Source of the DNA: Escherichia coli
GTDB taxonomy: Bacteria > Pseudomonadota > Gammaproteobacteria > Enterobacterales > Enterobacteriaceae
Direction: 5' to 3' (one strand)
DNA length: 64,000 bases
Assembly (NCBI RefSeq): GCF_044647545.1
Contig: NZ_CP172818.1
The notes beneath the pieces were generated by a model, which was not told the DNA's origin, searched no databases, and saw only the letters and a list, made by a program, of their open reading frames with translations. A program made the translations under genes and the position numbers. Positions 62,278-64,000 of the stretch are shown piece by piece; positions within the stretch are counted from its first letter, which is position 1; every line of letters begins with the position of its first letter.

Positions 62278-62445
62278 ATGATCATGCTGATTCTCCGCCT
62301 CTGGTGGGCGGCGGTGCTTTTGCTGGCGTATGGTGCCGCTCATTTATCCCCCGGGGGTTTTGTTCCCGGGGCGTTGTGCCTGTTCTGGTCGTTGCTGGTG
62401 GCGCGAATCTGTTCGACACAGTCGTCTGTCGGCGGAGGTAAATAG
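62278..62445 (+). CDS. ymfR: small hydrophobic protein (55 codons)
   Basis: ATG 62278 to TAG 62443-62445: [55 protein letters not shown]; below ORF-track cutoff; gene name from memory. Confidence 0.5.
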
Positions 62446-62795
62446 TGTTCTTTTCGGGATTATTTCAACGAAAAAGCGACGCACCGGTGACCACGCCAGC
62501 AGAGCTGGCGGATGCCATCGGGTTGTCCTACGACACCTATACCGGAAAGCAGATCAGCAGCCAGCGGGCCATGCGACTGACGGCGGTTTTTTCCTGTGTC
62601 AGGGTGCTGGCAGAGTCGGTCGGGATGTTGCCTGCAATCTGTATCACCTGAACGGCAGCCTGAAACAGAGAGCCACGGCGAGCGTCTGCATAGCTGATCT
62701 CCACGCATCCCAATGGCTATATGACGCCGCAGGAGTTCTGGGAGCTGGTGGTCACCTGTCTGTGCCTGCGGGAAACTTTTACGCCTACAAAGTGA
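62445..62795 (+). pseudogene. beeE: portal protein gene fragment with in-frame stops
   Basis: portal-like N-terminus (RAMRLTAVFSCVRVLAESVGMLP) ends at TGA 62649; in-frame stops at 62649, 62661 and 62691 precede a second portal-like segment HPNGYMTPQEFWELVV ending at 62795. Confidence 0.7.
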
Positions 62796-62841
62796 AAGCA
62801 TTTGGCGAAGTGGCTGAAACTGCTGCCCGTCGATCCCGGCT

Positions 62842-63633
62842 GTGTGGTATATGCGCTGGGAAGGTGTCAGCGATGGCCTGAAGGTGACCGCCGGGAGTGT
62901 TATTCAGCGCGATGACCTGGTGCAGTACACGACAACTGACGATGCAACCAGCTCCGGTGGTGTCCTGCGCGTGCCGATCACTTGCTCAACTACAGGCGCG
63001 GTCGGTAACGCTGACGACGGTACGGCATTAATCCTGGTCACGCCGGTGAATGGTCTGCCGTCTTCCGGTGTTGCAGATACCCTGACTGGCGGATTTGATA
63101 CTGAAGAGCTGGAAACGTGGCGCGCCCGCGTCATTGAGCGGTATTACTGGACGCCTCAGGGCGGGGCTGACGGGGACTATGTCGTCTGGGCTAAAGAAGT
63201 GTCAGGCATTACCCGTGCATGGACATACCGCCACTGGATGGGAACGGGGACTGTCGGTGTGATGATTGCCAGCAGTGACCTGATTAATCCCATTCCGGAA
63301 GAATCAACGGAAACGGCGGCAAGACAACACATTGAGCCACTGGCCCCGGTGGCAGGCTCTGATTTGTATGTATTCAGGCCGGTGGCGCATAAAGTGGATT
63401 TTCATATCCGCGTGACGCCGGACACACCGGAAATACGGGCTGCCATCACCGCGGAGTTGCGTTCGTTCCTGCTGCGTGATGGTTATCCGCAGGGAGAACT
63501 GAAGGTATCGCGTATCAGTGAGGCGATTTCCGGTGCGAACGGGGAATACAGCCATCAGTTGCTTGCACCGGCAGACAATATCTCCATTGCAAAAAATGAA
63601 CTGGCGGTTCTGGGGACGATTTCATGGACGTGA
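62842..63633 (+). CDS. jayE: baseplate assembly protein J-like (likely truncated remnant)
   Basis: ORF track 263 aa; baseplate-J-like sequence; GTG start directly after the portal fragment suggests N-terminal truncation. Confidence 0.65.
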
Positions 63634-64000
63634 CAAACGATGATTACATCCGCCTGTTATCGGCACTGTTGCCGCCCGGTCCTGCATGGTCAGCCAGCGA
63701 TCCGGCGATTGCCGGTGCGGCACCTTCATTAACCCGCGTTCATCAGCGTGCGGATGCCCTGATGCGGGAGCTGGATCCGCGCACCACCACTGAACTGATA
63801 AACCGCTGGGAGCGTCTGTGCGGTCTGCCGGATGAATGTATTCCCGCAGGGACACAGACCCTTCGCCAGCGTCAGCAACGGCTGGATGCGAAGGTTAATC
63901 TGGCGGGCGGCATCAATGAGGATTTTTACCTTGCACAGCTTGCTGCCCTGGGCAGACCAGACGCCACTATCACGCGATACGATAAAAGCACGTTCACCTG
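63624..64000 (+). CDS. ymfQ: phage tail/baseplate protein (partial, continues past window end)
   Basis: ATG 63624 overlapping jayE stop (ATGGACGTGA); [23 protein letters not shown]...; no stop in window. Confidence 0.7.

Follow-up and report, generated by a model that had tools for sequence, protein, structure and literature searches.

The window analysed here, a stretch of 64,000 nt on one strand of an Escherichia coli genome (NCBI RefSeq assembly GCF_044647545.1, contig NZ_CP172818.1), ends in a portal–baseplate region that is the ymfR–beeE–jayE–ymfQ segment of the e14 cryptic prophage. Two large deletions run through this prophage, its portal fragment is broken by private, clustered indels, and the window as a whole is a composite of K-12-identical and lineage-type DNA. 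The best overall explanation, which we consider very likely, is that the e14 deletion scar entered the record as part of a composite assembly on a K-12 skeleton, and that the in-frame stops in the portal fragment are an artefact. Such a composite may have come from a reference-templated assembly or from a consensus of mixed reads.

The e14 segment and its gene fragments

Window positions 53155–64000 (plus strand) were colinear with the annotated K-12 cryptic prophage e14, which adjoins icd. Based on colinearity and the K-12 annotation, they contain the prophage from its left end to the window edge, with ymfD, ymfE, lit, intE and xisE at one side and ymfR, beeE, jayE and ymfQ at the other, and the ORFs further upstream of the portal–baseplate region matched Lit, IntE, XisE, the CohE repressor and other e14 genes. 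In the left arm, lit is intact at 55425–56318 and encodes the cell-death peptidase Lit (297 aa), identical to the K-12 copy. K-12 e14 has the same gene order and the same place beside icd, both deletion junctions agree with it to the base, and across the left 7 kb there is no difference from it. In K-12, the DNA of the portal–baseplate region is annotated as ymfR, ‘phage portal protein, missing C-terminus’, ‘baseplate J/gp47, missing N-terminus’ and ymfQ, and is followed 3′ of ymfQ by the stfP/tfaP/tfaE/stfE invertible segment with pinE, and then by mcrA and the displaced icd end. This stf/tfa/pin segment is present in K-12 and in the sibling assembly BS-04, at a position corresponding to beyond the window end. 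The genes ymfR, beeE, jayE and ymfQ belong to the standard gene list in K-12 papers (PMC11541549), and e14 has been described as a relic lambdoid prophage with genes, including beeE, that are induced by DNA damage (PMC11228462, citing Mehta, Casjens & Krishnaswamy 2004 for the relic lambdoid prophage). The portal/baseplate scar is already known as the e14 pseudogenes beeE and jayE, which have been catalogued for two decades.

The portal gene fragment (beeE/ymfO) occupies 62445–62849 on the plus strand, 405 nt that correspond to nt 1–408 of the 1242-nt HK97-family portal gene. Translation of 62445–62882 gave a GTG frame of 68 sense codons from 62445 to a stop at 62649–62651, with further in-frame stops at 62661, 62691 and 62793–62795, and 117 codons in all. 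The stops at 62649, 62661 and 62691, the end at 62795 and a frame of about 115 codons had been noted in the initial annotation, and the translation confirmed them. Portal-derived DNA runs on past 62795 to 62849 in shifting frames. The 68-aa ORF (62445–62651) matched the portal protein family PHROG 12 (E 1.7e-10) and no Pfam family, while the intact portal of the prophage in E. coli F200 matched PF04860 (E 4e-108). The 405 nt present did not yield the full-length PF04860 domain (~320 profile positions) in one frame. An intact portal homologue in one frame, which would have contradicted the initial annotation, is not recoverable, since only 408 of the 1242 nt exist.

The portal fragment is followed by a C-terminal fragment of baseplate J (jayE/ymfP), a 263-aa ORF with a GTG start at 62842–63633 (plus strand), which belongs to the Baseplate_J family (PF04865, E 1e-47, profile positions 34–255 of 255) and to the baseplate wedge family PHROG 6. 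Its first three codons include portal-derived bases, and the gene, 352 codons long when intact, has lost approximately 91 codons from its 5′ end. The fragment showed 100% nucleotide identity to the intact baseplate J gene of a dusA prophage in strain WP4-S18-ESBL-09. The Mu gp48-like baseplate/tail gene ymfQ (63624–64000, plus strand) starts with ATG, has the same 10-nt overlap with the end of jayE as its K-12 counterpart, and is cut by the window end after its first 125 codons, which are a member of Phage_Mu_Gp48 (PF10076, E 1.8e-18) and of PHROG 203. The reported order of a baseplate-J ORF from GTG at 62842 and then ymfQ was thus correct. The antisense ORFs and a 183-aa mixed-frame ORF showed no family matches, and a promoter scan was at background (3 found, 2.1 expected). 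Terminator-like sites numbered 11, with 2.9 ± 2.0 expected.

Deletion junctions and the ancestral phage

The F200 prophage was used as the intact reference for junction mapping. Its late genes encode the small and large terminase, YmfR, a portal of 413 aa, an HK97 protease, capsid, connectors and sheath, and continue with tube, tape measure, baseplate gp46, a baseplate J of 352 aa, YmfQ, fibres and invertase. Window positions 61130–62849 aligned with F200 from the terminase to nt 408 of the portal gene, and positions 62846–64000 aligned with the 1059-nt Mu-gp47-type baseplate J gene from approximately nt 272. The two alignments overlap at 62846–62849 in a 4-nt microhomology, GGTA, which is present in both the intact portal gene (F200 L005, up to 20408) and the intact baseplate J gene (from 33068). 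At this second junction, the window lacks 12,663 bp relative to F200, and with them every head gene, the sheath, tube and tape-measure genes and the rest of the baseplate genes. This agrees with the initial annotation, which described a portal fragment joined to baseplate genes and read the absence of head genes as a second large deletion; the F200 alignment and the family matches support both statements.

The first junction, also mapped against F200, lies in a GGT microhomology at 61130–61132, where approximately 9.8 kb is gone between a replication gene and the middle of the terminase gene. It lies within a 455-aa in-frame fusion ORF at 60899–62266 (plus strand; ymfN in K-12, now oweE and aaaE), which combines a replication-initiator HTH N-terminus with the C-terminal two-thirds of the terminase large subunit. 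The ORF matched HTH_36 (residues 23–70), TerL_ATPase (profile positions 118–174 of 178) and TerL_nuclease in Pfam, and an O-like replication initiator and terminase among the PHROGs. Both junctions are identical to the base in the window, K-12 and the sibling assembly HS-01. The second junction, shared by K-12, is present in about 284 complete genomes, and the undeleted portal start in about 1,340.

Over the terminase–ymfR–portal start, nucleotide identity was 95–96% to phages SfI, SfII and SfIV of the SfV group and to the F200 prophage, and 86.5% to Salmonella phage ST64B; the SfI, SfII, SfIV and ST64B matches end exactly at 62849. The serotype-converting myoviruses of Shigella flexneri, ST64B and the F200-like prophages have the same late order as the window, with terminase, a small membrane ORF and an HK97-type portal, and the intact phages continue with protease and capsid through to a Mu-type baseplate (gp46/gp47/gp48), fibres and invertase. 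Of the 413-aa portal and the 352-aa baseplate J of intact SfV-group relatives, the window keeps 33% and 74%, respectively, with nothing between. The tail module is therefore of the Mu-gp47/gp48 type (SfV/SfI-like) and not of the P2 type. A comparison with P2 gpJ had been proposed, and it holds as far as the Baseplate_J Pfam family, which is common to both.

Taken as a history, these alignments suggest that the ancestor was an SfV/SfI-like temperate myovirus with an HK97-type head and a Mu-type contractile tail. Illegitimate recombination at the GGTA microhomology would have removed 12.7 kb, with the protease, capsid, connector, sheath, tube, tape-measure and most baseplate genes, fusing approximately codon 136 of the portal to approximately codon 91 of baseplate J, and a separate deletion of 9.8 kb would have fused the replication gene to the terminase gene. 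The portal and baseplate remnants are inert scars, unable to build particles, although in K-12 DNA damage still induces their transcription. The idea that they contribute to a host-range module found no support; no tail can be assembled without the sheath, tube and rest of the baseplate.

Indels and the composite make-up of the window

Compared with the HS-01/F200 allele, the portal fragment showed zero substitutions, four 1-nt deletions (62631 CCC→CC, 62676 CC→C, 62692 AA→A and 62769 GGGG→GGG) and one 1-nt insertion (62817 AA→AAA). All five indels lie in homopolymer runs, and the stops arise from these frameshifts, not from nonsense substitutions. When the indels were undone, 135–136 of 136 residues matched the F200 portal and K-12 BeeE; the K-12 fragment is one open frame of 136 codons, unlike the interrupted window copy. 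The indels are strongly clustered: 15 of the 31 between the 64-kb window and K-12 fall within 522 nt (62296–62817; binomial P ~1e-23), and none lies in the neighbouring 2.3 kb of the prophage. The portal segment is present in 1,342 of 5,426 complete E. coli genomes, none of which has any of the five portal-fragment indels, and an exact-pattern scan for the first deletion (CCC→CC, 62631) found it in neither GTDB species representatives nor metagenome contigs. The sibling records HS-01, BS-01 and BS-04 are likewise without the window's indels. Five indels without a substitution are not the spectrum of natural pseudogene decay. They are private, lie in DNA that otherwise encodes 135–136 of 136 intact-portal residues, and are most likely an assembly artefact and not biology. 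The in-frame stops of what the initial annotation called a degraded region are thus real in the record, but they are not ordinary decay.

The ymfR-like ORF for a small membrane protein immediately upstream (62278–62445, plus strand) encodes, by alignment, a 55-aa variant of the standard 60-aa allele found in K-12 e14. Its frame is still open in spite of a small number of substitutions and ten short deletions, which remove 15 nt in total; the deletions form groups of −6, −6 and −3, each a multiple of three. These multiple-of-three sums with an open frame may be due to chance. The variant matched a membrane protein family (PHROG 502) weakly, and a homology search found WP_400165227.1 as the sole identical protein on record, with an accession from the block that also contains novel proteins of BS-04 and HS-01. 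Exact look-ups of the 55-aa YmfR, the 455-aa fusion, a 188-aa YmfL and the 263-aa JayE gave no match.

The bacterial backbone of the window (4776–53154) differed from E. coli ECONIH1 by approximately one indel and two or three substitutions in 47 kb, and poor overall assembly was rejected as the cause of the indels on this ground. In ECONIH1 and its relatives, the icd site is empty. The ECONIH1 lineage also carries a 1.49-kb island between rluE and icd, with DUF1493 and STM2901-family genes and flanking 11-nt direct repeats (TCTAAAAGAAG). This rluE–icd island of ~1.5 kb is found in all eight closest backbone relatives (46872–48356 in L007) and is absent from K-12 and from the window, which has a clean empty site at 51600–51650.

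In the prophage, the segments 53155–57797, 58194–60479 and 60905–61129 (7,154 nt) showed zero differences from K-12 MG1655, and every difference from K-12 in 53155–62205 is confined to three patches that resemble the dusA prophage. This prophage, intact and SfV-like, is integrated at dusA in genomes of the same lineage as the backbone. The patch at 57798–58193 is 99.7% identical to its copy in the same-lineage strain WP4-S18-ESBL-09, and that at 60480–60904 is 100% identical. The third patch (61130–62205) is 99.6% identical to the dusA prophage, with all 30 diagnostic sites to 62189 of the dusA type, and the right arm (62846–64000) is 100% identical. The terminase and jayE–ymfQ segments thus carry the alleles of another prophage, unlike K-12 e14. 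In a collection-wide search, no 100% full-length match was found for the patches at 57.6–58.1 kb and 60.36–61.13 kb, and the early region of the dusA prophage explains them. The allele switches sit exactly at the limits of homology, both deletion scars included, and at 62189–62200, where homology ends, the alleles interleave 1–3 nt apart. Interleaving on this scale cannot be produced by homologous recombination, but can be produced by a read-mapping consensus.

The remaining stretch of the right arm, 62206–62845 (640 nt), has no close homologue, and its substitutions are of the F200/HS-01 type, neither K-12 nor dusA-prophage. Two sources for it were considered and rejected: the ymfR/portal allele of the dusA prophage as the origin of the indels, because it is approximately 55% identical and the window states differ, and K-12 DNA as the origin of the stretch, because all diagnostic substitutions are of the F200/HS-01 type.

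The left boundary of the prophage also departs from K-12. The 3′ end of icd and the next 51 nt (52939–53154) are 100% of the unoccupied-site type of ECONIH1 and not the e14-borne version seen in K-12, differing from the K-12 attL copy at approximately 31 of 216 sites. In K-12, e14 brings to attL a diverged version of the final ~165 nt of icd. This version was not found here, and the unoccupied-site icd end argues against an Int-mediated integration of e14 in this genome. Among 5,426 complete genomes, the ymfD–ymfE–lit–intE module at 100% identity occurs in 277 K-12-type genomes only; elsewhere, nothing beyond an intE homologue (83–91%) is present.

Similar features were observed in sibling records. 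HS-01 (L002, NZ_CP172817.1), BS-04 (L010, NZ_CP172819.1) and BS-01 (NZ_CP172816.1) are RefSeq ‘complete genomes’ of approximately 4.5 Mb from one Indonesian farm study; a literature search found no paper on this Sukabumi batch or its accessions. BS-04 has a different backbone, yet its e14 left half, with 5 kb of e14-unique genes, is identical to K-12, its icd end is non-e14, its ymfL is frameshifted, and its substitutions and indels occur only in segments common to other phages. In HS-01, the e14 left half is missing and a truncated icd is joined straight to the terminase fragment. BS-01 gave a BLAST match of 97.1% to the portal fragment. Like the window, the HS-01 and BS-04 records combine the K-12 structure with the SNPs of another lineage, with anomalies only in segments that have paralogues elsewhere, and both look K-12-templated.

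Competing explanations and significance

This pattern is most simply explained by an assembly built on, or mixed with, K-12 sequence: a K-12 reference skeleton of e14 appears to sit in the ECONIH1-lineage backbone, overwritten by the strain's own homologous prophage sequence wherever this was available. In 62206–62845, where a good homologue is lacking, a thin or conflicting consensus probably then left the indels. A third sequence source must be assumed for this stretch, because its substitutions are neither K-12- nor dusA-type; another prophage of the strain could have supplied it, as could cross-talk with one of the sibling samples. These F200/HS-01-type states count against the explanation, as do the multiple-of-three indel groups with ymfR open, which could hint at selection and a real allele, and the lack of the e14 left half in HS-01 from the same batch, which would mean that uncovered reference regions were treated unevenly.

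The sequence might instead be real, if a strain of the ECONIH1 lineage had acquired a K-12-like e14 and gene conversion from the resident dusA prophage had later replaced its terminase, ymfL/DUF4222, xis-proximal and jayE–ymfQ segments, with decay by frameshift where no sufficiently similar donor existed. In favour of this, the indel cluster lies wholly in the sole right-arm stretch without a second copy, a prophage found in the same lineage matches the patches at 99.6–100%, and the YmfR variant keeps an open frame despite ten deletions and has a RefSeq protein record. However, five indels with zero substitutions in the 405-nt fragment are an unnatural spectrum of decay, four conversion tracts would each need to reach the very edge of homology with switches 1–3 nt apart, and Int-mediated integration should have left a prophage-borne icd end at attL, where there is none. 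Moreover, the e14-unique genes, otherwise limited to K-12-type genomes, differ from laboratory K-12 at 0 of 7,154 positions, and the same pattern recurs in the unrelated sibling assembly BS-04. We therefore regard this history as unlikely. Its strongest form, in which the isolate truly carries e14, the remnants were overwritten up to the scars by conversion from the dusA prophage and ymfR with the portal stub represents a burst of frameshifts, appears very unlikely; if true, it would show in nature how a prophage can ‘repair’ the pseudogene fragments of a paralogous one, with indel mutagenesis localized next to the conversion tracts. The K-12 sequence could also stem from contamination of the sample with K-12 cells or DNA, or from a mixed culture, and have been threaded into the icd locus by the assembler, with reads from the resident prophages dominating the shared segments. 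Such admixture would explain K-12-identical unique and lineage-type shared segments equally well, as well as the loss of the e14 left half in HS-01 and its retention in BS-04 and the window source. We consider it improbable, as the ymfR–portal stretch should then be of the K-12 type but shows F200/HS-01 states at every diagnostic site, and a low-level contaminant should leave errors in the unique segments, where none was found in 7,154 nt.

The biological weight of the portal–baseplate region is small, and its practical value is that of a data-quality warning. With the e14 scar in a K-12-templated composite as the preferred explanation, a database ‘complete genome’ appears to have borrowed K-12 structure, placing a laboratory-strain prophage with spurious frameshifts in the backbone of a clinical lineage. 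This record and its siblings would mislead any study of prophage content, of pseudogene decay or of recombination that included them.
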